This document shows positions 8,903-49,497 of a stretch of DNA of 49,497 nucleotides, piece after piece (the stretch's first letter is position 1; each line of letters opens with the position of its first letter). The DNA comes from a virus. Lineage: Duplodnaviria > Heunggongvirae > Uroviricota > Caudoviricetes. The notes beneath the pieces are model-generated. The model made no database searches. It was not told where the DNA came from and saw only the letters and a program-made list of their open reading frames with translations. The DNA lies in the IMG/VR virus record IMGVR_UViG_2660238070_000012, positions 1 through 49,497 of that record; one strand, given 5' to 3'. A program made the position numbers and the translations under genes.

Positions 8903-9358
8903 CTATCTCCCGTGATTCAGGAAGTCGATTAGTTCTTCGCGTGTGGCGCTGTAAAAAGTCACGTCATCCACACCTTTAAAGTATTTCTTGATGGTTCCGA
9001 CACGCTTAAGGCCAATCATTGCGCAGTAAATCTGCCCGTGGCGGAATTTGCGTGCGGCGAACGATGTGACGCACTGAACGGTGGTGTTAGTCAGAATGTA
9101 TCGCCAGAACGCCAGCCCGATTTCCTTGCTGAAGCCGCGAATCTCTGGCAGGTACATGGCGTGGCAATCGAATGTCAGCGGCTGAATCTCCTGATAGTAA
9201 ACAATGCCGCCAAACTGACCGTGCACGTTCACCTCAAAGTAACGGCAATCAGGTTTGTAGTCGTATCCATCACCGTTGTTGCTTCCGGCAATAATGTCAG
9301 GGTGATTTCCGACTGCTTCGATCAGGTCGATGTTTCGCGTTGGTTTGAACTGAATCAT
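8903..9358 (-). CDS. Head assembly / DNA stabilization protein, P22 gp14-like
   Basis: 151 aa. Position between needle and gp7-like gene as in P22. Confidence 0.6.
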   Translation of the reverse strand: MIQFKPTRNIDLIEAVGNHPDIIAGSNNGDGYDYKPDCRYFEVNVHGQFGGIVYYQEIQPLTFDCHAMYLPEIRGFSKEIGLAFWRYILTNTTVQCVTSFAARKFRHGQIYCAMIGLKRVGTIKKYFKGVDDVTFYSATREELIDFLNHGR

Positions 9359-10311
9359 TACTGCTCCGCGATTATCTTGATGGTTGTGGCAGTAAACGTC
9401 GCCCCATTTGACTGAATGGTTAACGTACTGCCATTTGTGGCAAGAAAGCCGTCTTTATCCACGCTGAAGAACGTAGCTAACAGGATGTTATCGGTTGTTG
9501 TCGCCGCATTACGACTGCTTACCAGTGTGTCAGGAACAGAGCCGGAAAAGGTTAGCTGCATTGACCTGTTGGCGGTTCCACTGGGCCACGTCCCGACAAT
9601 CGACAGCTTGAAGAACAGGGTTTTGTTCTCGTTGAACACAACCATCTTGTTGTTAACGGTGTCGAAGAATGGTGCCAACGTTCCGGATAACGGCGTGAGC
9701 GTTTTCAGCAGGCTAACAAGGTTAGTCGGCGCTGTCGGGATGGTTACAGATACTCCTGAGTAAACAACCTCTGATTTCTTGCGCGTGGTGGCATACTCAA
9801 GCGCAGATATTCTTGTTGAGTGATCACCAGCTGTGCTTTGTAGCGTCGAAATACTTCCCTCTGCCGCTGTGAGCCTGGTATCAAGTGCTTCGATATCGTC
9901 TGTATTCTGAGTAATGCGCACATCATGGTTTGCTAACTCAGATTCATTAGCAGCAATTCGCGCCTCGTGATCAGCCAACTCTGTTTCAGCAGCCGTAATC
10001 CTTGTTTCATGATCTGCAAGAGTGCTTTCCGCTGCTGAGATTCTATGTTCATGATTGATGAGAGTTGCTTCAGCAGTTTCAATTCTGGATTCATGGTCTG
10101 CAAGGGTGACATCCTGCTCATCATTCTTCACCTGTGCATCATAAGCCCCCTTCCCTGCTTCGTTGGCCTTGTTAGCCACATTACCAACATCAGTACCCTG
10201 TGCAATAACGTAAAGCAGATACGACTGAGAGAAGATATTGCGTGGAAGGACTGATGTATCGAGCCGCGTAGCCTGGATGATTACTGGCTCATTGAGATTC
10301 GAATCAGCCAT
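9358..10311 (-). CDS. Tail needle protein (gp26-like trimeric coiled coil with C-terminal knob)
   Basis: 317 aa. Long heptad-repeat region ([39 protein letters not shown]...) followed by a globular C-terminus. Synteny after gp10-like gene. Confidence 0.75.
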
Positions 10312-39120: not shown

Positions 39121-39368
39121 AATAGCGGGTAAAATATTTTTCACATCTAAAAAACACCATTCCAATCAATCCCCTGCCGCCTCAAGTAGATGTCTGCAGG
39201 GGACACCATGAACACTTCTCACTAAGTTCAATTAATTCCATAACTCACTGTTTTAACTGATATCATCTCCTTATACTCGTCCAGCAAAGTACCATTATTT
39301 CTAATGGAATCTATACATCTTTGCGTATAACATTGTGTATAACTGAGTTCGATCTTTTTTCTATACAC

Positions 39369-40544
39369 ATGCTGCTATCTGACATCCAAATAAAAAGAGC
39401 AAAACCGAAGGACAAACCCTATACGCTTAACGATGGTATGGGGCTATCACTCCTGATCGACACAGCGGGCAGTAAAGGCTGGCGTTTTCGCTATCGCTTT
39501 GCAGGTAAGCCTAAGATGATTTCCTTTGGCGTATATGGCGATGTGTCGTTGGCACAGGCACGTACCAAACGTGATGAAGCGCGTTCGATGTTAGCCAACG
39601 GGATAAACCCAAGTGAAGCCAGAAAAGCAGATAAGATTGCTTTGCAGTTCGCGCATGAGAACAGCTTTGAGTCTGTGGCCAGAGAATGGCACTCATCGAA
39701 AAAAGCCACCTGGTCAGAGGGTTATGCAAAAGAGGTTCTCAATTGTATGGAAAAGGATATTTTTCCTTTTATCGGCCAGCGCCCAATTGAGCAGATTGAA
39801 CCATTAGAACTGCTAACCGTCCTGCAAAAAATAGAGAAAAGAGGTGCGCTAGAGCAAACCAGTAAGATCCGCCGCCGCTGTGGTGAAGTGCTTCGTTATG
39901 CTGTTGCCACTGGTAGAGCAAAGTATAATTTTGCACCCGATTTAGCTATCGCACTCAACAAACCTAAAACCCAACACTTCCCGTTCCTGACTGAAAGCGA
40001 GTTGCCCGAGTTCGTTAATGCTCTGGATAACTATCAGGGCAGTTTAGTTACCAAATACGCCACGCAGCTGTTGATGCTAACAGGCGTGCGAACAATTGAA
40101 CTACGTGCAGCGGAATGGGCTGAGTTTGATTTAGATAATGCCTTATGGGAGATCCCCAAAGAACGGATGAAGAAACGCCGCCCCCATCTGGTTCCGTTAT
40201 CAACTCAGGCGATCAATATCCTGAAAAAGCTGCAAGAAATAACAGGGAATTACAGCCTCGTTTTCCCTGGCCGGAATGACGTCAGTAAACCAATGAGCGA
40301 AGCCAGCATCAACAAAGTGATAAAACTACTGGGTTATCACGGTCGGTTAACGGGTCACGGTTTCAGGCATACCATGAGCACCATCTTGCATGAGCATGGG
40401 TTTGAAAGTGCCTGGATTGAAATGCAGCTTGCGCATGTTGATAAGAACTCTATTCGAGGTACTTACAATCATGCGCAATATATTAAAGATCGACAAGTAA
40501 TGATGGAATGGTACGCTAGCTTATTAAATACGACCTGCTATTAA
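39369..40544 (+). CDS. int: Tyrosine recombinase / phage integrase, P4/IntA-like family
   Basis: 391 aa from the ATG at 39369 (MLLSDIQIKRAKPKDKPYTLNDGMGLSL...). C-terminal GHGFRH...RGTYNHAQY catalytic region. Paralogous to the integrase at 1-1158. Confidence 0.9.
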   Translation: MLLSDIQIKRAKPKDKPYTLNDGMGLSLLIDTAGSKGWRFRYRFAGKPKMISFGVYGDVSLAQARTKRDEARSMLANGINPSEARKADKIALQFAHENSFESVAREWHSSKKATWSEGYAKEVLNCMEKDIFPFIGQRPIEQIEPLELLTVLQKIEKRGALEQTSKIRRRCGEVLRYAVATGRAKYNFAPDLAIALNKPKTQHFPFLTESELPEFVNALDNYQGSLVTKYATQLLMLTGVRTIELRAAEWAEFDLDNALWEIPKERMKKRRPHLVPLSTQAINILKKLQEITGNYSLVFPGRNDVSKPMSEASINKVIKLLGYHGRLTGHGFRHTMSTILHEHGFESAWIEMQLAHVDKNSIRGTYNHAQYIKDRQVMMEWYASLLNTTCY

Positions 40545-41474
40545 ATCCAGCATGAAACAAATATGGTGAGTAATTTGATACTGTTTGTTTTTTGGCAACC
40601 CAGGGAAATGCCTTACAGTTGGTTGACTATTGTAATAATAATAGTTAAGACCAATGTTGCTGCCAAACTGGGTTGGATGTTGGGGAACAAGATTTGTAAT
40701 TTGATCTGAAACATCTAAAAATTTTGCAGTAACATTTGAACTTCCTCGTTGCGTGTTGCTTGATACAAAATGACGAATCCAAACTGTATTCGCTTGTAAA
40801 TTCTTGAACACCAAATGTGCGGCAACAGCAGAAGGTTGACCACCTCCAAGATCTAGTACCTGGCCAGTAATTGTATAATCGCCAAATCCTAAGTAATTTT
40901 GTCCCACGAATTGATGTGCGTGCGTGAAAAGTTCCGGCCCATTATAATCAGCATTTTTTGCTAACTTTCTAAAGTTATCGCTAATAATAATTAACTTCGA
41001 CAAAGGAAGAAGAGCGCACTGATTAGGAAGCATTTTATTATTTAAAACAACATGATAACTAATCAATTGATTTGTCGCCAACAACTGAATATCAGAGTTG
41101 GATAATGATGGATTATCATATAGAAGTGCAACTCGTCTATTTAAGTTAGCATTCAACCAATTATTAATATCATTAATCGTTGTATTGGGCTGAATAAGAT
41201 ATCCAGAGATGATATTATTTTTATTTGTTAATACACTTGATAAATTTTGATTTAAAGTTAAGACGTTATTGTGTGAAGAAAAATCTTCCTGATAAGGATT
41301 AAGGATAACAATTATGTCAGAATTCCAAACATTTAAACATGTTAATAAATTTCTCGTATTGACGTTAATTGGTTCTAAAATTGGTAGCAGACCATTTAGG
41401 CTAACTCCCTTCGCAACGAGGTCCCTAAGGCATAATAACTCTGTACTTCTCGCATACAAATATGGGCTATACAT
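40524..41474 (-). CDS. Hypothetical protein, second gene of an AT-rich two-gene cassette
   Basis: 316 aa, Asn/Leu/Ile-rich. Low-GC codon usage unlike the flanking prophage. 3' end overlaps the integrase stop by 21 bp convergently. Confidence 0.65.
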   Translation of the reverse strand: MYSPYLYARSTELLCLRDLVAKGVSLNGLLPILEPINVNTRNLLTCLNVWNSDIIVILNPYQEDFSSHNNVLTLNQNLSSVLTNKNNIISGYLIQPNTTINDINNWLNANLNRRVALLYDNPSLSNSDIQLLATNQLISYHVVLNNKMLPNQCALLPLSKLIIISDNFRKLAKNADYNGPELFTHAHQFVGQNYLGFGDYTITGQVLDLGGGQPSAVAAHLVFKNLQANTVWIRHFVSSNTQRGSSNVTAKFLDVSDQITNLVPQHPTQFGSNIGLNYYYYNSQPTVRHFPGLPKNKQYQITHHICFMLDLIAGRI

Positions 41475-41495: not shown

Positions 41496-42377
41496 TCAAC
41501 AAATTTTAATTTTTACATCCATCAAATTCATGATGAATTCTTTTTGCTTTCTTGATAATGGTGTTGCATAACCTAAAACACGTAAACATGCTGGAAGAGA
41601 ATAAATATAATCCAAAAAAACTTTATCGTTACATCTTTTTTTCATAGCAGAGATAAAGTATTTATTTGCTATGTTTAATGGCATCTGCATGAATATCTCT
41701 TTACAATATTCATAAACCAATCCGTTAGGCATATTTATTTTAGTTGAAGTGTAATCTTCTATTATAGCTAAGAACTCTTCCTTTCTAAGAACTGAAAACA
41801 AGCTGTCACTTTTAATATAATCAATATTTGAATCTGCCTCCTTAATGACACTCAATTGATCTTTTTTATTCAAAACCATAACTCCCACTCTGGGGAGATT
41901 TAAAGCACAATATTTACTTGCATACTCTGGATGTGTAACTATATACACTTTATCAAAAACATCCAAATAATCAGGGGCTTGAGTAATCAACCTTTTTGGT
42001 GAATCATACTCTGTCTTAATCTCGTAAGCTGTAGACGTACCATTAAACACCGCAACATCCACTATAGAGTTTTTAATTGGTAACTCTATGGACGACGAAC
42101 TTGTTTTTGGGCTGTGCTTACCGAATATTATTTTATTGACAAGTGCTGTCTTATAAACATATTCATTTCTATAATTCAGACGCAAAAAATCATATAATGA
42201 TGTAAATAAATCCCTTAGTGAAATCTCATGTTCATTATTATCATTGTTTGAAAACAGTGTTTCATAGCAGTAAGAATCAAAACTCCCAAATAAATCCGAA
42301 ATATCCTTACCTTTTGCTAAGGATGAAAAAATGGGGCGACGGAAAAATTTAGCATATTCCTTTTTATTATGACTCAT
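41496..42377 (-). CDS. Hypothetical protein with PD-(D/E)xK-like nuclease motif, first gene of AT-rich cassette
   Basis: 293 aa. IVDVAVFNGTSTAYEIKTEYD gives D-x10-E-x-K spacing typical of restriction-endonuclease-fold nucleases. Very AT-rich. 21-bp gap to the downstream gene. Confidence 0.65.
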   Translation of the reverse strand: MSHNKKEYAKFFRRPIFSSLAKGKDISDLFGSFDSYCYETLFSNNDNNEHEISLRDLFTSLYDFLRLNYRNEYVYKTALVNKIIFGKHSPKTSSSSIELPIKNSIVDVAVFNGTSTAYEIKTEYDSPKRLITQAPDYLDVFDKVYIVTHPEYASKYCALNLPRVGVMVLNKKDQLSVIKEADSNIDYIKSDSLFSVLRKEEFLAIIEDYTSTKINMPNGLVYEYCKEIFMQMPLNIANKYFISAMKKRCNDKVFLDYIYSLPACLRVLGYATPLSRKQKEFIMNLMDVKIKIC

Positions 42378-43611: not shown

Positions 43612-46299
43612 TCACTCAGGTTCAGCGCTTCCCAGTACCTGTGTATTGAACTGGTACACACGTTTAAGCCCTATTTCTGGCAGGCGAATGCTGTTTTGCG
43701 TCCGGCCATCTTCACCGGGTTTCAGCCAGCCCGCGTCCACACACAACCTGGCCACCTTACGCGAGTCAAATCCCTTACAGATCTCCTTCCAGCCTGACGG
43801 GAGAACGTAGAACGTCACAACCGGCTCTGTCACGTTGTCTCCTTTATCGACTTTTCTGAATCCCATCATTGAAACAGGCCGGTTCCTGTCGTCATTCCAG
43901 TCAGCAAACCGACTGAACTGATTACGCGTCATGAAGTCCCGAACCTGTTCAAGTGCCGCTTTATCTTCCTGATTAGCTGTATGGCCCCGGTCAGCCATCC
44001 ATGCAGCCAGACAGCTTTGAGCGGCACGAAAGGCCTCTCCCTCCGGCCATCCTGTGATGCCCGCTTTTGTGGCCAGCTCCCCGGCCATCGCAACCAGAGC
44101 AAAACGGGTAACAGCCCGGCCAACCTGATTCCCGGCATTTTCCGGCGTCAGCCTTCGGGTATACTCTTTCAATAAGGCTTTCGCCTGACTGGTCAGTTCC
44201 GGCAGATCAGCGGTCAGGCAATACAGCCAGTCGCGGAATGGTGCACCATGATAATGCGCTACGTGCTGCTCAAGATGCTCAGCCAGGGTTTTCCCGCTAC
44301 TGAAGCCATGAAGTTCTTCAAACACGCCATACTTGCCCGAATCGCTTGGGATCTGGATCATTCTGACCTCAACCCCGGCATACGTACGTTCCCCGGCGCT
44401 TGCCGCATGCTCTACCAGTGACAGTTCCCCGGTAGACAGAAACAACAGATTCCAGCGGTTGGTTTCCCTTACCGAACCATCTGTTCTGGCTCTGGCTTTG
44501 CCCTGCCCGTTAGCCAGCATATAAGCGATATTTCCCGCCTCCCTGCCGTCAACCTCCCGGATTTCATCCAGCATCAGCGTGGCATCATTGCGGCGGCTCG
44601 CCGTTCCTTCTAAGGCATTCCCCGTCGCCCGCCACGTATGCCAGAAATCTGTTCCACCACATACTGATGCAGCCACTTTCATCGTCGTGGTTTTACCGTC
44701 TGTGGATTCCCCTTTGAGGTGATAACCTCCACCGCCGATACCAACCAGTTTCAGAAGGGGGGCAGCAAATGCCAGACTCACCGCAAAGGCAAGACGGGCA
44801 TTCTTTATGCAATAACGGCCTATATTTTCACGCCAGCCCTCTGATGTGCCGCTGACACGAAAATCACGCCCCTGCACACTCGATGTTTGTAAGATGACTG
44901 ACTGGGCTTCGCGCCCTATCACTTCATCCTGGAGAACGTAAACCCCGCCGTGCCAGCCAGTTTTATTCACACAGGTTACTTTTCTGTCCGGTTTACACAG
45001 CGAGATATATTCCATCAGGAATGCTCTGGCCATGCCGTTAATGTTGATGTAAGAAAGCCCGTTAACCAGCAGAACGCGGCGCAGTTCTTCCCCGCTACCG
45101 CCCAGCATCTCCATCGGCATTGCCCATTTACGGCTGTTTCCGTTGGTATCTTCCCATTCCAGCAAACGCCCGTAATTACTTCCATCAGCATCACTGGTGA
45201 TTGCCGTCACCCGCAACGGACTGCAAATTTTGATATTACGTATCTCTGTATCACCATCAGACTTATTAACCAGCTTGTCGTACCACAAATATTCTTTTGT
45301 CAGCCGGAACCCTTCTGGTAAACGGGTCTGCCCTTTGCCATGCAGCGTCATTTCTTCACGAAAGGCATCTCTCGCCCGTTCTTTCCCCACTTCCTGCCGA
45401 TAATCATCCCAGTCAGCCTTATGGCGTACCGGAGGGAGCGTTACCCAGCCATCCACCGCTTTGGCGGCTTTCTCTGCCTGAATACGCCCGGTGTTTTCTT
45501 TGCCGTCAGCCAGATCATTATCTCCGGCCAGAATGATCCGGGTTTCCGGCCAGCGTTTTCGGATCTGCTCCGTCACCTTCAGTAAATTGGTGGCAGCGAC
45601 AGCCGCCACGATCCATCCTTCAGTCAGCAGACTGACGGTAAGCGCCGTGGCAAAACCCTCAGTGATAATCACCTGTTCAGGTGTTTCAGCGGGTATATCG
45701 GTCAGGGCAATGAATGCGCCAGACAGCTGGCTACCGGGCAGCAGACTTTTATCCCCGTCAGGATTGATAAGCTGGCCACCAGTAATATTCCCGGAAATAT
45801 CCGTCAAAGGCAGCAGTAATGAACCGGTGGAAAATGTTATTCCGGCCAGATTCAAAGGCTGTGACAGCAAGGGAAGTGAATACCCGTGTAAGCTCTTATT
45901 TGTCAGATAGACCGGCTCACCATTGCAGGACTGCTGTCTGAGTCTGGTATATCGCTCCGCGCCCGCTTCTTTTCCTGCGGCCTTTTTCCTGGCTGGCAAT
46001 GCGGGCTTCTCCTGTATTTCTGGTAATGCAAGCGCCTCAGATACCATCCCGGCGACTTCTTTTATCTTTCTTCCTGTCACCAGACGAACCAGATCAAGAC
46101 CATCGCCATGACCGCACTGATTACAAAACCACGTCCCTCGCCCCGCTTTATCGTCCAGTCGAAAACGATCTTTTCCACCACAGGCAGGGCAAGCCCCATG
46201 ATGTCCTGCGGACGGTACTTTAATACCTAATGCTGACAGGATATAAGGCCAGCGCCCAATTGCAGCTCCGGAAATCGTGGATACAGACGGTGTTTTCAC
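43612..46299 (-). CDS. Primase-helicase, P4 alpha-like
   Basis: 895 aa. N-terminal zinc-binding primase motif (CPACGGKDRFR...CNQCGHGDGLD), Toprim-like region (IILAGDNDLADGKENTG), C-terminal helicase Walker A (LKGESTDGKTT). Confidence 0.85.
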   Translation of the reverse strand: MKTPSVSTISGAAIGRWPYILSALGIKVPSAGHHGACPACGGKDRFRLDDKAGRGTWFCNQCGHGDGLDLVRLVTGRKIKEVAGMVSEALALPEIQEKPALPARKKAAGKEAGAERYTRLRQQSCNGEPVYLTNKSLHGYSLPLLSQPLNLAGITFSTGSLLLPLTDISGNITGGQLINPDGDKSLLPGSQLSGAFIALTDIPAETPEQVIITEGFATALTVSLLTEGWIVAAVAATNLLKVTEQIRKRWPETRIILAGDNDLADGKENTGRIQAEKAAKAVDGWVTLPPVRHKADWDDYRQEVGKERARDAFREEMTLHGKGQTRLPEGFRLTKEYLWYDKLVNKSDGDTEIRNIKICSPLRVTAITSDADGSNYGRLLEWEDTNGNSRKWAMPMEMLGGSGEELRRVLLVNGLSYININGMARAFLMEYISLCKPDRKVTCVNKTGWHGGVYVLQDEVIGREAQSVILQTSSVQGRDFRVSGTSEGWRENIGRYCIKNARLAFAVSLAFAAPLLKLVGIGGGGYHLKGESTDGKTTTMKVAASVCGGTDFWHTWRATGNALEGTASRRNDATLMLDEIREVDGREAGNIAYMLANGQGKARARTDGSVRETNRWNLLFLSTGELSLVEHAASAGERTYAGVEVRMIQIPSDSGKYGVFEELHGFSSGKTLAEHLEQHVAHYHGAPFRDWLYCLTADLPELTSQAKALLKEYTRRLTPENAGNQVGRAVTRFALVAMAGELATKAGITGWPEGEAFRAAQSCLAAWMADRGHTANQEDKAALEQVRDFMTRNQFSRFADWNDDRNRPVSMMGFRKVDKGDNVTEPVVTFYVLPSGWKEICKGFDSRKVARLCVDAGWLKPGEDGRTQNSIRLPEIGLKRVYQFNTQVLGSAEPE

Positions 46300-46706
46300 A
46301 GCAGCACCTCCTGACCTTCCGGCTTCACAAATTCAAAACCTTCGGGTAGTTCGCCATCAGGTGCTCCGAAAATAATATCCCGGTAAACCTCACGCATCTC
46401 TGTGACACCAAAAACTGACAGGCGAATATTTTCTGACATAAAGCCTGGTTTAAGCATTTTTTCCAGTTTCTCTGCGGCCAGTATGCAACCAGCATCAGCC
46501 CCAAACTCATTCACCCACGGCATTTCAATATGGTAAATAATATTACTCACCACTTTTTCGTGGGAGAGTTCTATTCGTTCGCCATCTTCAATATAAACAG
46601 GTTCATTATGAACACGCACCATTAAGGAAATGAATGCATCAGCAATGTAGTAGCGTAAGACTGCTGTTCGTAAAGCATGCGCCTTTAAATTTTGATTATT
46701 ATTCAT
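46296..46706 (-). CDS. Hypothetical protein upstream of the primase (epsilon position)
   Basis: 136-aa ORF translationally coupled (ATGA) to the primase gene. Confidence 0.5.
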   Translation of the reverse strand: MNNNQNLKAHALRTAVLRYYIADAFISLMVRVHNEPVYIEDGERIELSHEKVVSNIIYHIEMPWVNEFGADAGCILAAEKLEKMLKPGFMSENIRLSVFGVTEMREVYRDIIFGAPDGELPEGFEFVKPEGQEVLL

Positions 46707-46935
46707 CGCGCATCACTCCCTTAATTGTGCTGGTTTCCTTAACAACGCCATCCAGTTGTTCGGCAATACAGGCCACTAAAGCCGCAGCGCCTTCCGCTGA
46801 AACAGTTCTCGCTCCATTCACTGTGGGCACGGACAAGACCTCTGCAAGAAACTCACTGGCCAGTGCCGCCCGTAACAGACGACTCTCCCCCTGTTCACTC
46901 AATATGCAGCCTTGCTTAAAATTCATGGATTTCAT
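46699..46935 (-). CDS. Hypothetical protein
   Basis: 78-aa ORF coupled to the downstream gene. Confidence 0.45.
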   Translation of the reverse strand: MKSMNFKQGCILSEQGESRLLRAALASEFLAEVLSVPTVNGARTVSAEGAAALVACIAEQLDGVVKETSTIKGVMRDE

Positions 46936-47135
46936 GCAACCACCTCCCCGGCTCTTTTCACAGGGATACGGGCAGCAAAGCTCAGGATAAATTCAGTGGC
47001 AAGTTTAAGGCGTGCAGCATGCTCGCATTCTGCGATTACACGCACAGGGCGTGGACGGGCATCACGGTCTGTACGGCGGACAGCCAGAAAGACAAAGGTA
47101 AATTCAGGGTGAGATAAAGCAGGGACTGTAGCCAT
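46932..47135 (-). CDS. Hypothetical small protein (possible DNA-binding regulator)
   Basis: 67 aa from the internal ATG at 47135 (MATVPALSHPEFTFVFLAVRRTDRDARPRPVRVIAECEHAARLKLATEF...). The longer listed ORF runs through a structured non-coding region. Confidence 0.4.
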   Translation of the reverse strand: MATVPALSHPEFTFVFLAVRRTDRDARPRPVRVIAECEHAARLKLATEFILSFAARIPVKRAGEVVA

Positions 47136-47146
47136 AATGGCAACCT

Positions 47147-47413
47147 CCTTCAGATAGCGGGTAACGCTACCACCGGAGTTCCTACGCTCATGGGTGGTAG
47201 CCCAGACGGGGGTAGGAATACCGGCTCTGAAGGATACCGGCCAGCCCGAAAGCTGCCCCGCCTGGACTACCATAATTCTGATGATGTGGCGTAAAAAATA
47301 AAAAAATACAATCAGCCACCACACCATAAATTTTAGGTGAGTCAAAGCTGCGACACAAAAAAACACGCCTAGCGCGTGTAGTATCGCCTTCAGATAACAC
47401 GGGTTCCTACGCC
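47147..47413. promoter_or_regulatory. Structured leader with two direct repeats and one inverted-complementary segment (candidate antisense-RNA control region)
   Basis: CCTTCAGATA..GGGT...TTCCTACGC occurs at 47147-47187 and 47387-47413. A partially complementary segment GTAGGAATACCGGCTCTGAAGG lies at 47212-47233. An internal hairpin GCTACCACC / GGTGGTAGC is at 47165-47201. Confidence 0.4.
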
Positions 47414-47609
47414 CGGCTGCCGATTTTGCGGCAACCTTTAAACTATATCCCGCGCATTCCTGGTGAGGCAAGAAATTTATAACCGAAAACTGATCATTGC
47501 CTGGATTAATTAACGCTGGCATGCTTAAGCCTCTGCTTAAAAATAGTTCTTCATTTTTCCTGATGCTGTAAACGAGACCCGCCTCTGAGCGGGTCTTTCT
47601 GTCGCTAAG

Positions 47610-48614
47610 TCAATCCGCAAACGTCAGGGTGCACTCATCAACAGCCGCGTACAGTTCAGGTTCACCGAGTGCATAACCTTCATTGCGCAGGTAGGAATGC
47701 ACGTATTCACTGCTTTCATCATCAAACTCAGCACGAAACCAGCGTGTTATCGCCTGAGTGTAAATATGCAGATTATCCAGCGTCGTTACTGCCAGACGCT
47801 TACCCGGCATAAACGGGGGAATAAACGCAAAGCGGCCAGCAACAGAACTTGTAGCCATCTGTGCCGCATTCACATCAGACGGGCGGTCTGCGGCATTAAA
47901 TAACTTCAGGCGTTGATGTGCTGCCAGCTCTGCCCCAACCAGTACAACCAGACGAGGATCTTCACGAAACTGCTCAGCAATAAGCTCTGTAATCAGATGG
48001 TTGGCCAGAGCATCAATATTTTTCCAGGTGCCAGTCTCTCCCAGAGTGACAGGCTCAGAGATGATTTGCTTTCCGTTCCCGTAGGCTTTCGCCAGTGCAT
48101 GCCAGCCAATATTGACATCCTCGCCTTTTTTATTGATTTCCGGGTTTGTAGTATTTGCAATCGACACACCGTTGAAACCGACCCGCAGCATGTCCAGCGC
48201 ATATGCCTGGGCAAAAAAGCTCTCAACCGTTTTCTCAAACTCATCCGGCACGCCGGTATGGTAAATATGAGACATATCGGAATAGCTGATCCGGGCGCAG
48301 GTATCCGTCTCTGTCAGAAAGAACTCCGTACCATTGATTGCCATTTTTTTGTGGAAACGGCCACCATCCACACGTCCGGTATACAGTTCACTGGCACCAA
48401 TATTGACGGCATTACCTGACACGGCGTTAACATCACGTAGGGTAATATTTTTAATAAGCCACCCGGATTCCAGAATTGAGGTACGCAGTATATTTTCAGT
48501 AGGTTCGCTTAATGCAAAGCGTCTGTTTGATTCTTCCTGATAGTTAGTGCCAGTGACGAATTTATTATGATAACGACGTGCTGCGTCCGGCCTTTCAGTT
48601 TTGAAGGCATACAT
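47610..48614 (-). CDS. Major capsid protein homolog, P2 gpN family
   Basis: 334 aa. GFNGV, GW, IDAL, EDPRLVVLVG and LDNLHIY align with recalled P2 gpN motifs (GFNGV, GW, LDAL, EDPDLVVIVG, LENLSIY). Based on recalled sequence only. Confidence 0.6.
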   Translation of the reverse strand: MYAFKTERPDAARRYHNKFVTGTNYQEESNRRFALSEPTENILRTSILESGWLIKNITLRDVNAVSGNAVNIGASELYTGRVDGGRFHKKMAINGTEFFLTETDTCARISYSDMSHIYHTGVPDEFEKTVESFFAQAYALDMLRVGFNGVSIANTTNPEINKKGEDVNIGWHALAKAYGNGKQIISEPVTLGETGTWKNIDALANHLITELIAEQFREDPRLVVLVGAELAAHQRLKLFNAADRPSDVNAAQMATSSVAGRFAFIPPFMPGKRLAVTTLDNLHIYTQAITRWFRAEFDDESSEYVHSYLRNEGYALGEPELYAAVDECTLTFAD

Positions 48615-48636: not shown

Positions 48637-49497
48637 TTAAGAAAAGATTTTATTTTTGTACTCAGTAACCAGATTGTATTTCATTACATGCTCAACATAA
48701 TCCCGGTCACTTACGACTGAACGTAATACATAATTATCTGCTCGATAGTACTCCCTGTAAGCCATAGCTCTTGCCATTCCACCGTTATTTAATACATAAC
48801 GATCAGTTGGAACGCTACAACGACTAATAATTTCACTCACGGAATCAGATAAAGACTTGAGTGCATCAGTAATAAATTTAATATCACGGACAACGTCACT
48901 GTCATTAAATACAGAAATAAAATCAGCAGGGATCTGGCCGGATTGAGGAAATATATTCAGTAAACGCTTATCGATTCCCTTCCCAATGTAGTTTCCTTCA
49001 TCGGCCAGTACTCCCGGCAAAAGCTTGATCGTGCTCAATCGACTATGTTGTTCATTCAACCGGGAAACAGCCAGATGGTAATACCGTTCAGCATCCGCTC
49101 GTTCAGCATGCCCCATTTTATTCGTTTTGGCTTCAGCAATGCTACTGACGCCGTTTTTTGAGAATGTGCTTTTCCATGCAACTTCCGCATTTGTCACTTC
49201 ACGCTGCCGGAAAGATAACTCTTCCTCTTCCTGACGACACAACTGGGCATAACGGCTCAGGAGCAGGTTGATCTCATTCGCCACAGTTTCCGTATCAGGT
49301 ACTGTTAACCCCGTAAGTGAATACAGCTTTTCACCTTTAGCTCGCAGCTTATTCAGTGAATATATTTCAATAATACGCACAATACAGGCCGTGTCGCTAT
49401 GAGTCTCTTTAAATGATCTTACTTTGTAACTATCTAACACCGACACATGTTCGTTCTTAATTGATGCCAATTTCTTCTTAAAAACATTGTCAACCAT
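48637..49497 (-). CDS. Hypothetical protein (start coincides with window end)
   Basis: 286-aa ORF upstream of and co-oriented with the capsid homolog. Does not resemble recalled P2 gpO scaffold. May be N-terminally truncated by the window. Confidence 0.5.
   Translation of the reverse strand: MVDNVFKKKLASIKNEHVSVLDSYKVRSFKETHSDTACIVRIIEIYSLNKLRAKGEKLYSLTGLTVPDTETVANEINLLLSRYAQLCRQEEEELSFRQREVTNAEVAWKSTFSKNGVSSIAEAKTNKMGHAERADAERYYHLAVSRLNEQHSRLSTIKLLPGVLADEGNYIGKGIDKRLLNIFPQSGQIPADFISVFNDSDVVRDIKFITDALKSLSDSVSEIISRCSVPTDRYVLNNGGMARAMAYREYYRADNYVLRSVVSDRDYVEHVMKYNLVTEYKNKIFS

Follow-up and report, generated by a model that had tools for sequence, protein, structure and literature searches.

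The window, by which we mean the whole stretch of 49,497 nt that was analyzed, matches E. coli chromosomes, and the part of it considered here belongs to an element of ~11 kb whose limits are marked by the 15-nt 3' end of a tRNA-Arg. This att repeat is all that the window contains of a tRNA, and ARAGORN reported none there. The element encodes an integrase, an Ogr/Delta protein, a primase operon and an sce7725/sce7726 pair, in which sce7726 matches the PADLOC 'cll' model. Upstream of the immunity region are an alpA-like gene, a 286-aa ORF and a homologue of the P2-family (gpN-like) capsid protein; no sid or psu homologue occurs in the element and the gpN-like capsid gene stands in their place. 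A search of 5,426 complete genomes found the 741-bp region of the locus with at least 99% identity in 421 records. E. coli SK1144 (NZ_AP018784.2, 1506856-1507596) is one of the strains that carry the element. The Ogr/Delta-type dyad TGT-N12-ACA is present three times in locus L001 against an expectation of 5.2, and the pattern as such lacks significance; upstream of the alpA-like gene, at a distance of ~55-70 nt and beyond the window, there is one copy that is suggestive by its position only.

All of the features described below lie on the minus strand, which is the functional one. An eta-like ORF of 196 aa (46932..47522) runs codirectionally over the RNA segments seqA, C4 and seqC, and it shares its end with a kil/icd-like gene of 67 aa (46932..47135, ATG at 47135), the first translated gene past the promoter. 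There follow a 78-aa ORF (46699-46935), a 136-aa ORF (46296-46706) and an 895-aa primase (43612-46299; Pfam Zn_Ribbon_Prim, Toprim_3 and DUF927), all three of them candidates for control by the leader, these genes being linked by overlapping stop and start codons. Over its N-terminal 317 aa the primase has 38% identity to P4 alpha, and its C-terminus is DUF927; an earlier, sequence-only reading of this DNA had placed a P4 alpha-type primase next to the leader. The 78-aa and 136-aa ORFs resemble neither P4 epsilon nor orf151 and have no Pfam family, and NCBIfam, applied to the ORFs after the leader, gave the Icd-like domain only.

The leader opens with a PLE-like candidate constitutive promoter (47442..47471) that was located by a consensus scan and consists of the -35 box TTGCCT, an 18-nt spacer and the -10 box TATAGT. 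This last box hardly varies among 44 related loci (see below) and aligns with the annotated -10 box of the P4 record X02534; we infer promoter activity at this site. Next comes a seqA/IsrK-like leader RNA (47358..47435), composed of two hairpins, a single-stranded stretch and an intrinsic terminator, which is recognized by the Rfam isrK model and whose stems covary. The loop of its second hairpin holds the a1 box GUAGGAA (47404..47410) and its single-stranded stretch the b1 box UCUGAAGG (47387..47394), while its terminator hairpin (47363..47379) is followed by U7 and is indicated by a terminator scan, by the isrK alignment and by covariation of helix 3. An AU-rich spacer of about 80 nt leads to the C4/CI-type antisense RNA (47190..47277), which the Rfam C4 model describes as a 17-bp basal stem with two hairpins. 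The loop of the second C4 hairpin carries the X box CCUUCAGA (47226..47233), complementary to b1 and b2, and the single-stranded junction of the molecule carries the Y box UUCCUAC (47212..47218), complementary to a1 and a2. The downstream target, seqC (47147..47185), comprises a2, again GUAGGAA (47179-47185), and b2, again UCUGAAGG (47147-47154). The kil-like gene has the Shine-Dalgarno sequence GGAGG at 47144-47148, of which the first two G are also the last two G of b2, and its ATG at 47135 is 8 nt further on. A separate hairpin, AGACCCGC/GCGGGTCT (47575..47596), is situated past the capsid-like gene and upstream of the eta-like start; the terminator scan made no call there because its U tail is weak.

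The minimum free energy (MFE) fold of C4 (-47.8 kcal/mol, z -5.3) has the long basal stem and the two hairpins of the Rfam C4 structure, and the 307-nt leader as a whole has a z of -4.66. The isrK region folded alone is not unusually stable (z -0.74); its support comes from covariation, not from energy.

The boxes belong to longer repeats. The sequence CCTTCAGATA occurs at 47147-47156 and again at 47387-47396, and GTTCCTACGC at 47178-47187 and 47403-47412, each pair agreeing at 10 of 10 positions, with the central inverted copy GTAGGAATACCGGCTCTGAAGG at 47212-47233. The sequence-only reading had described two direct copies, and all of their elements are indeed present within 1 nt, the second copy ending at 47412 and not at 47413. 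It was also right that the inverted copy can pair with both of the direct ones, for it is their exact complement over 8 nt and 7 nt at both sites, and right about a 9-bp hairpin, GCTACCACC (47166-47174) with GGTGGTAGC (47193-47201), which is exact. Matches to the two-box pattern GTAGGAA-N5-35-TCTGAAGG number three in the 49.5-kb window, all of them at the repeat and inverted-copy sites, and 100 dinucleotide-preserving shuffles gave none.

RNA families, homology to P4 and the overlapping frames

When the whole window was scanned with Rfam at gathering thresholds, only two matches were obtained, and both are in the leader. The first is the C4 antisense RNA (RF01695) at 47190-47277 on the minus strand, with 81.1 bits (gathering score 45), E 2e-14 and coverage of model positions 1-87 of 87; the second is isrK (RF01394) at 47358-47435 on the same strand, with 68.9 bits (gathering score 50), also at full length. 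A permissive scan added c4-a1b1 (RF03163, 'a1, b1 targets of C4 antisense RNA') at 47396-47448 with E 1.3e-9 and 43.8 bits, which is below its gathering score of 46.7, as is the corresponding match in P4 itself (44.1). Matches to Trp_leader, snoRNA and miRNA families in the E-value mode (13-19 bits) are far under their gathering scores and were set aside as chance. RNAs of the C4 family are stable processed molecules of ~77-80 nt, the 5' end of which is generated by RNase P.

On P4, Rfam finds the same trio in the same order (74.9, 60.8 and 44.1 bits). The sequence-only reading had been unable to match its sequences to P4; BLASTN against 50,697 phage records nevertheless aligns window positions 47055-47450 with P4 8285-8707, that is, ~400 bp of the P4 immunity region, with 70.9% of positions identical (E 3e-49), and among the matches listed P4 is the top one. 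In P4-like prophages, IsrK corresponds to seqA and C4 to the CI RNA (PMC3632133).

The protein-coding content of the locus points to P4 as well. The 67-aa ORF is recognized by the NCBIfam model NF033153 ('host cell division inhibitor Icd-like') with 68 bits (cutoff 25), and in tblastn it shares 53% identity with the kil region of P4, with further matches to the icd locus of PY54 and the cA locus of N15. The 196-aa ORF shares 49% identity with P4 Eta (E 1e-49), and MPAL opens both sequences. What the sequence-only reading took to be ~470 bp of non-coding DNA thus sits within the conserved 196-aa frame 46932-47522, a homologue of P4 eta. According to the account of Forti et al. (1999) that is summarized in PMC10111431, the eta gene of P4 encloses the constitutive promoter, seqA and CI; Kil is the C-terminal part of eta and is made from the immunity-sensitive transcript; and termination is averted when full-length eta is translated on transcripts of a late promoter further upstream. 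The sequence-only reading had also held that translation of 46932-47522 as a protein would speak against an immunity RNA. This argument is not valid, because the P4 RNA lies within translated eta and the ORF here is the eta homologue.

The frame itself is conserved. Of 45 related loci, 38 keep it open over 100 codons or more upstream of the kil ATG, as compared with 2 and 0 loci for the other two frames, and the median open lengths are 128 codons for the eta frame and 33 and 11 for the others. The long open frame is absent from L035, from L012/L044 and from a Rahnella/Ewingella group (L015, L025, L030). This conservation indicates that the region is of dual use, as RNA and as protein, just as it is in P4.

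Taken together, the C4 and isrK matches, the presence of the same trio in P4, the 71% identity to its immunity region and the coordinated changes of the boxes described below uphold the central claim of the sequence-only reading, that of a P4-style antisense-RNA immunity region. We are confident that a P4-like satellite prophage at the E. coli argW tRNA-Arg site has its immunity region here and that this region is homologous to the seqA-cI-seqC/kil-eta region of P4. The RNA family is one that this locus has in common with the c4-icd module of P1 and P7.

Covariation, box specificity and an alternative hairpin

Related loci were sought in GTDB, with one genome per species, by means of a pattern that fixed only stem bases of C4 (the second hairpin's stem and some of the basal stem) and left the boxes free. 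The search retrieved 46 loci, all from Enterobacterales, among them one chance match of the pattern scan (L007), which was excluded; the alignment (A2) contains 44 sequences. Because they were retrieved by a stem pattern, these loci are close relatives and the fixed stem positions are invariant by construction.

Across the 44 loci, 99.7% of the 659 cells in which C4 and seqA are expected to pair contain a standard pair. The a1-Y pairing is complete (100%), with compensatory changes at three of its seven pairs, and the b1-X pairing is 99.4% complete, with compensatory changes at seven of its eight. The two C4-seqC helices are paired in 98.9% and 100% of cases. Changes on both sides are seen at 10 of 15 pairs for C4-seqA and, again, at 10 of 15 for C4-seqC, and G-U wobbles are present. 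When, as a control, the partners were slid by 1-3 columns, only 31-53% of positions remained paired. The local stems of seqA and C4 are paired in 97.5% of cases with 10 compensatory pairs, and helices 4-6, those of C4, are paired in 100% with both-sided changes at five pairs, the stem of the second hairpin being fixed by the retrieval.

The boxes themselves are diverse. There are 13 variants of X and three of Y among the 44 loci, in 18 combinations. Of the 15 positions, a C4 RNA pairs on average at 14.9 when matched with its own targets and at 12.0 when matched with targets of other specificities. That the boxes vary and yet remain 99-100% complementary at three sites indicates that the loci have different immunity specificities. 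For P4-like elements such differences are already known from phiR73 (Sabbattini et al. 1996, as cited in PMC7567579). The C4 RNA of the window pairs with the P4 targets at just 11 of 15 positions, and heteroimmunity is what would be expected from this; the window element is presumably heteroimmune to P4. In all three pairs of elements that reside in the same genome the members differ in both boxes, a result that is not significant. The catalogue of box combinations predicts which satellites should be homoimmune and which heteroimmune.

A further helix, which we call Z:Z' (47166..47201), corresponds to the exact 9-bp hairpin described above and displays a2 in its loop. Its two strands are Z, GCUACCACC (47193-47201), which is also the 3' strand of the C4 basal stem, and Z', GGUGGUAGC (47166-47174), which lies within the spacer between a2 and b2. 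Over its nine pairs Z:Z' is 98.5% paired in the 44 loci, with compensatory changes at five of the nine. In P4, Z and Z' have changed together with full Watson-Crick compensation, and the 5' strand of the C4 stem is unchanged and wobble-pairs with Z. The Z:Z' hairpin and the mature C4 fold are mutually exclusive, and the covariation of Z:Z' is at least equally strict. The hairpin is present in the MFE fold of the 307-nt leader, alongside seqA:C4 pairing in cis; folded alone it is not unusually stable (z -1.2), and its support is covariation and not energy. It could serve in target presentation, as a processing switch or as an alternative conformer, and no description of it was found in the literature examined.

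The two strands of this analysis can be joined in a single and decidedly speculative reading, which we would rate as rather improbable, according to which the locus has two possibly undescribed features: a third helix, Z:Z', that acts as a conformational switch, and a combinatorial, two-key code of immunity. If this were true, the switch could decide whether the leader is processed to the immunity RNA or offers its a2 box as a target, and boxes that assort independently would let several P4-like satellites inhabit one cell without cross-repression.

A mechanism by analogy and its alternatives

The basis observed at this locus is homology, RNA structure, complementarity at three sites with its covariation, overlap with a ribosome-binding site and conservation of the nested ORFs. 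The corresponding mechanism in P4 is outlined in the summaries given by PMC4825925 and PMC10111431, and we propose a similar series of events here. The constitutive promoter (47471-47442, minus strand) would give rise to a leader transcript, the first part of which, the IsrK/seqA-like RNA, would mostly end at the intrinsic terminator (47379-47363) with its U run. Read-through RNA would hold the C4/CI RNA (47277-47190), to be excised as a stable RNA of ~80 nt. The loop (CCUUCAGA) and the junction (UUCCUAC) of C4 would then pair with GUAGGAA...UCUGAAGG in both seqA and seqC and, because the seqC copy overlaps the GGAGG ribosome-binding site, the pairing with seqC would block translation of the 67-aa Kil/Icd-like gene. 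The untranslated transcript would be terminated, a step for which P4 uses Rho, ahead of the replication genes, which are the primase and the pair of small ORFs before it, and in this manner the resident element, plus any incoming elements with the same boxes, would be kept silent. Transcripts initiated further upstream, and translating the eta-like ORF throughout, would escape this control. RNA processing, Rho-dependent termination and immunity are steps that we infer by carrying them over from P4 and P1/P7; no Rho-dependent terminator was identifiable from the sequence, where C mildly outnumbers G over the first ~120 nt of kil, a signal that does not amount to evidence.

The alternative that survives best, and which we nonetheless hold to be quite unlikely, takes the IsrK of Gifsy-1 as its model: the seqA RNA would be chiefly a trans-acting activator of the translation of the first ORF, acting by mRNA remodelling, and the function of the locus would be induction and not immunity. 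The isrK match (68.9 bits) of the upstream element and its own terminator fit such a role, and the short IsrK of Gifsy-1 does act in trans, opening the ribosome-binding site of orf45 on the long transcript (PMC4825925). The leader moreover has alternative conformers, since seqA:C4 pairing and Z:Z' both figure in its MFE fold, and the IsrK-like elements of P4-like prophages were required in a TraDIS study of S. Typhi (PMC3632133). Against this, the nearest DNA among the matches listed is that of P4, where the CI RNA is the repressor, and the downstream genes here are replication genes with no antirepressor. Furthermore, seqA and seqC carry identical boxes, and because of this seqA cannot pair directly with seqC or with the ribosome-binding site and is limited to competing for C4. 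The short seqA RNA could all the same have an additional role, by analogy either as a C4 decoy or as an IsrK-like trans-activator, and a role of this sort could coexist with repression mediated by CI.

It is highly improbable that the locus is protein-coding only, with a 196-aa 'Icd-like' protein as its sole product and repeats that are incidental and without RNA function. The RefSeq/PGAP annotation does treat the whole ORF 46932-47522 as the 'Icd-like protein' WP_001111085.1 and has no ncRNA there, PHROG 6928 includes such long forms, and the frame is kept in most of the related loci. The Icd-like domain, however, accounts for just the last ~48 of the 196 residues; two full-length covariance-model matches exceed their gathering scores; and stems and three-way complementarity are maintained through compensatory changes and G-U wobbles, a pattern that coding alone does not predict. 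In P4, too, the RNA and the eta ORF coexist, according to the summary in PMC10111431. The 196-aa ORF is real, and it adds to the RNA system without being an alternative to it.

We give as little credence to an anti-immunity module of the P1/P7 or N15 type (c4-icd-ant), directed by way of an antirepressor against a helper prophage and not at the element's own replication, for although the RNA family is that of P1/P7, the first gene is Icd-like with tblastn matches to PY54 icd and the N15 cA locus, and the family-less 78-aa and 136-aa ORFs hold the position at which P4 has epsilon, the derepressor of the helper, these two ORFs contain no Ant, Bro or KilAC family and are dissimilar to epsilon, and the primase belongs to the same co-oriented string of genes, so that control of replication follows regardless.

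Immunity of the P4 type remains the preferred reading. In practical terms, a CDS that is labelled 'Icd-like protein' in more than 400 complete E. coli genomes (at least 99% identity) conceals two unannotated regulatory RNAs, and the element appears as a P4-type satellite with an immunity specificity of its own. The locus provides a clean comparative set in which an antisense RNA and both of its targets covary, along with the catalogue of boxes and a conserved alternative hairpin. Beyond the annotation gap, the catalogue and this hairpin, its general interest is low.

Relation to known immunity systems

The closest comparison is with P4, in which the order is PLE - seqA - cI/CI RNA with seqB - seqC - kil/eta. 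The -35 and -10 boxes, the stems and the terminator are conserved; two boxes are complementary to one target upstream and one downstream, the latter overlapping the ribosome-binding site of kil; kil (67 aa here, 65 aa in P4) and eta (196 aa here, 197-199 aa in P4, with the MPAL start) are nested in the same way; and the region is situated upstream of the primase in a satellite with integrase and Delta. The recognition sequences differ: the window has GUAGGAA/UCUGAAGG facing CCUUCAGA/UUCCUAC, whereas P4 has GUGAGAA/UUCACAGG facing CCUGUGAA/UUCUCAC. The stems are identical and the boxes have changed with compensation at all three sites, the a and Y boxes differing as AGG versus GAG. In addition, seqA and C4 stand 27 nt closer together in the window; a capsid homologue, the 286-aa ORF and alpA lie upstream, where P4 has orf88/vis; the two ORFs that follow kil have no relation to epsilon or orf151; and the C-terminal domain of the primase is DUF927.

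The immI regions of P1 and P7, which are in the seed of RF01695 and RF03163, have the RNA family and the regulatory logic in common with the window locus, and no record named P1 or P7 was among the matches listed in the searches of the phage collection. For these phages Citron and Schuster are said to have found in 1990 that C4 is cut from the very transcript that it controls, with a1/b1 upstream of it and a2/b2 downstream. Reportedly, the downstream site in their system covers the ribosome-binding site of icd, the translation of which is required for downstream expression. The difference is that ant is downstream of icd in immI, and here there are replication genes without ant.

The Gifsy-1 arrangement IsrK - STnc1160 (orf45') - orf45 - anrP is similar in its terminated short leader RNA, its processed RNA of ~80 nt and its small first ORF, and IsrK has been called a structural homologue of P4 seqA (PMC4825925). 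There, the short RNA was shown to activate orf45-anrP at the level of translation, with an antirepressor and growth arrest as the outcome (PMC4825925); the context here is instead a satellite replication operon. In N15, PY54 and phiKO2, with their order cA RNA - icd - antC, the Icd-like proteins match at 38-42% identity and the DNA at 80-83% over the C4 part, but these phages are linear plasmid-prophages, and their module has an antirepressor under its control. As the antisense immunity mechanism of P4, P1 and P7 has been known since the 1990s, the mechanism at this locus is nothing new in kind; its recognition sequences differ from those of P4.

Co-resident immunity loci and the annotation of the 196-aa ORF

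Three genomes, those of Citrobacter youngae, Enterobacter intestinihominis and Mangrovibacter yixingensis, each carry two loci with C4-type immunity regions, and the co-resident members were compared as the pairs L017/L028, L031/L046 and L029/L048. Both recognition boxes differ between the partners in all three pairs; the pattern is consistent with a requirement for heteroimmunity in co-residence, although three pairs are too few to make it significant. In RefSeq/PGAP, the entire 196-aa ORF of the satellite (window 46932-47522, minus strand; 9033-9623 in locus L001) is labelled "host cell division inhibitor Icd-like protein", and neither the C4 RNA nor the IsrK-like RNA has an entry. The Icd-like domain comprises only about 48 residues at the C-terminal end. 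Hundreds of genomes have the immunity region, and this labelling is likely to recur in them.

The left end and its probable cargo

The satellite's left end has no more of tRNA-Arg than its last 15 nt (CTGCAGGGGACACCA, 39194-39208), and neither ARAGORN nor Rfam detected a tRNA in the whole window. In strain SK1144, an intact tRNA directly adjoins the element; hence the window DNA to the left of 39194 probably represents a further insertion into this att site, giving tandem islands. Adjoining the integrase is a pair of minus-strand genes of the sce7725/sce7726 family (40524-41474 and 41496-42377) with a low GC content (29-38%), the second of which is hit by the PADLOC model "cll" (P4 cII) at E 1.2e-18. 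The pair occupies the known defence hotspot position of P4, and it is therefore probably anti-phage cargo.

Comparison with P4 and its helpers

The likeness of the primase (43612-46299, minus strand) to P4 alpha is confined to the N-terminal portion with the Zn-ribbon and Toprim, where the two are 38% identical over 317 aa. A DUF927 domain makes up the remainder, in place of the helicase and origin-binding part of P4 alpha. At the right end of the satellite, outside the window, a TGT-N12-ACA dyad (L001 11899-11916) precedes the start of the alpA-like gene by about 55-70 nt, a placement that resembles that of Ogr/Delta-dependent late promoters. Between the putative late promoter of this gene and attR, the pentanucleotide GCCCA is repeated in tandem about 12 times (L001 12130-12190).

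Two minus-strand ORFs separate the alpA-like gene from the immunity region, at a position where P4 has nothing. One encodes a 334-aa homologue of the P2-family major capsid protein (47610-48614; Pfam PF05125, E 9.5e-67), which scores under the cutoff of TIGR01551 and shares no more than about 50% identity with the capsid proteins of Peduovirus; the other, located 5' of it, is a 286-aa ORF (48637-49497) for which no family was found. The P4 genes sid and psu are absent from the satellite, and the capsid homologue and its neighbor could provide a different route for redirecting the assembly of the helper's capsid.
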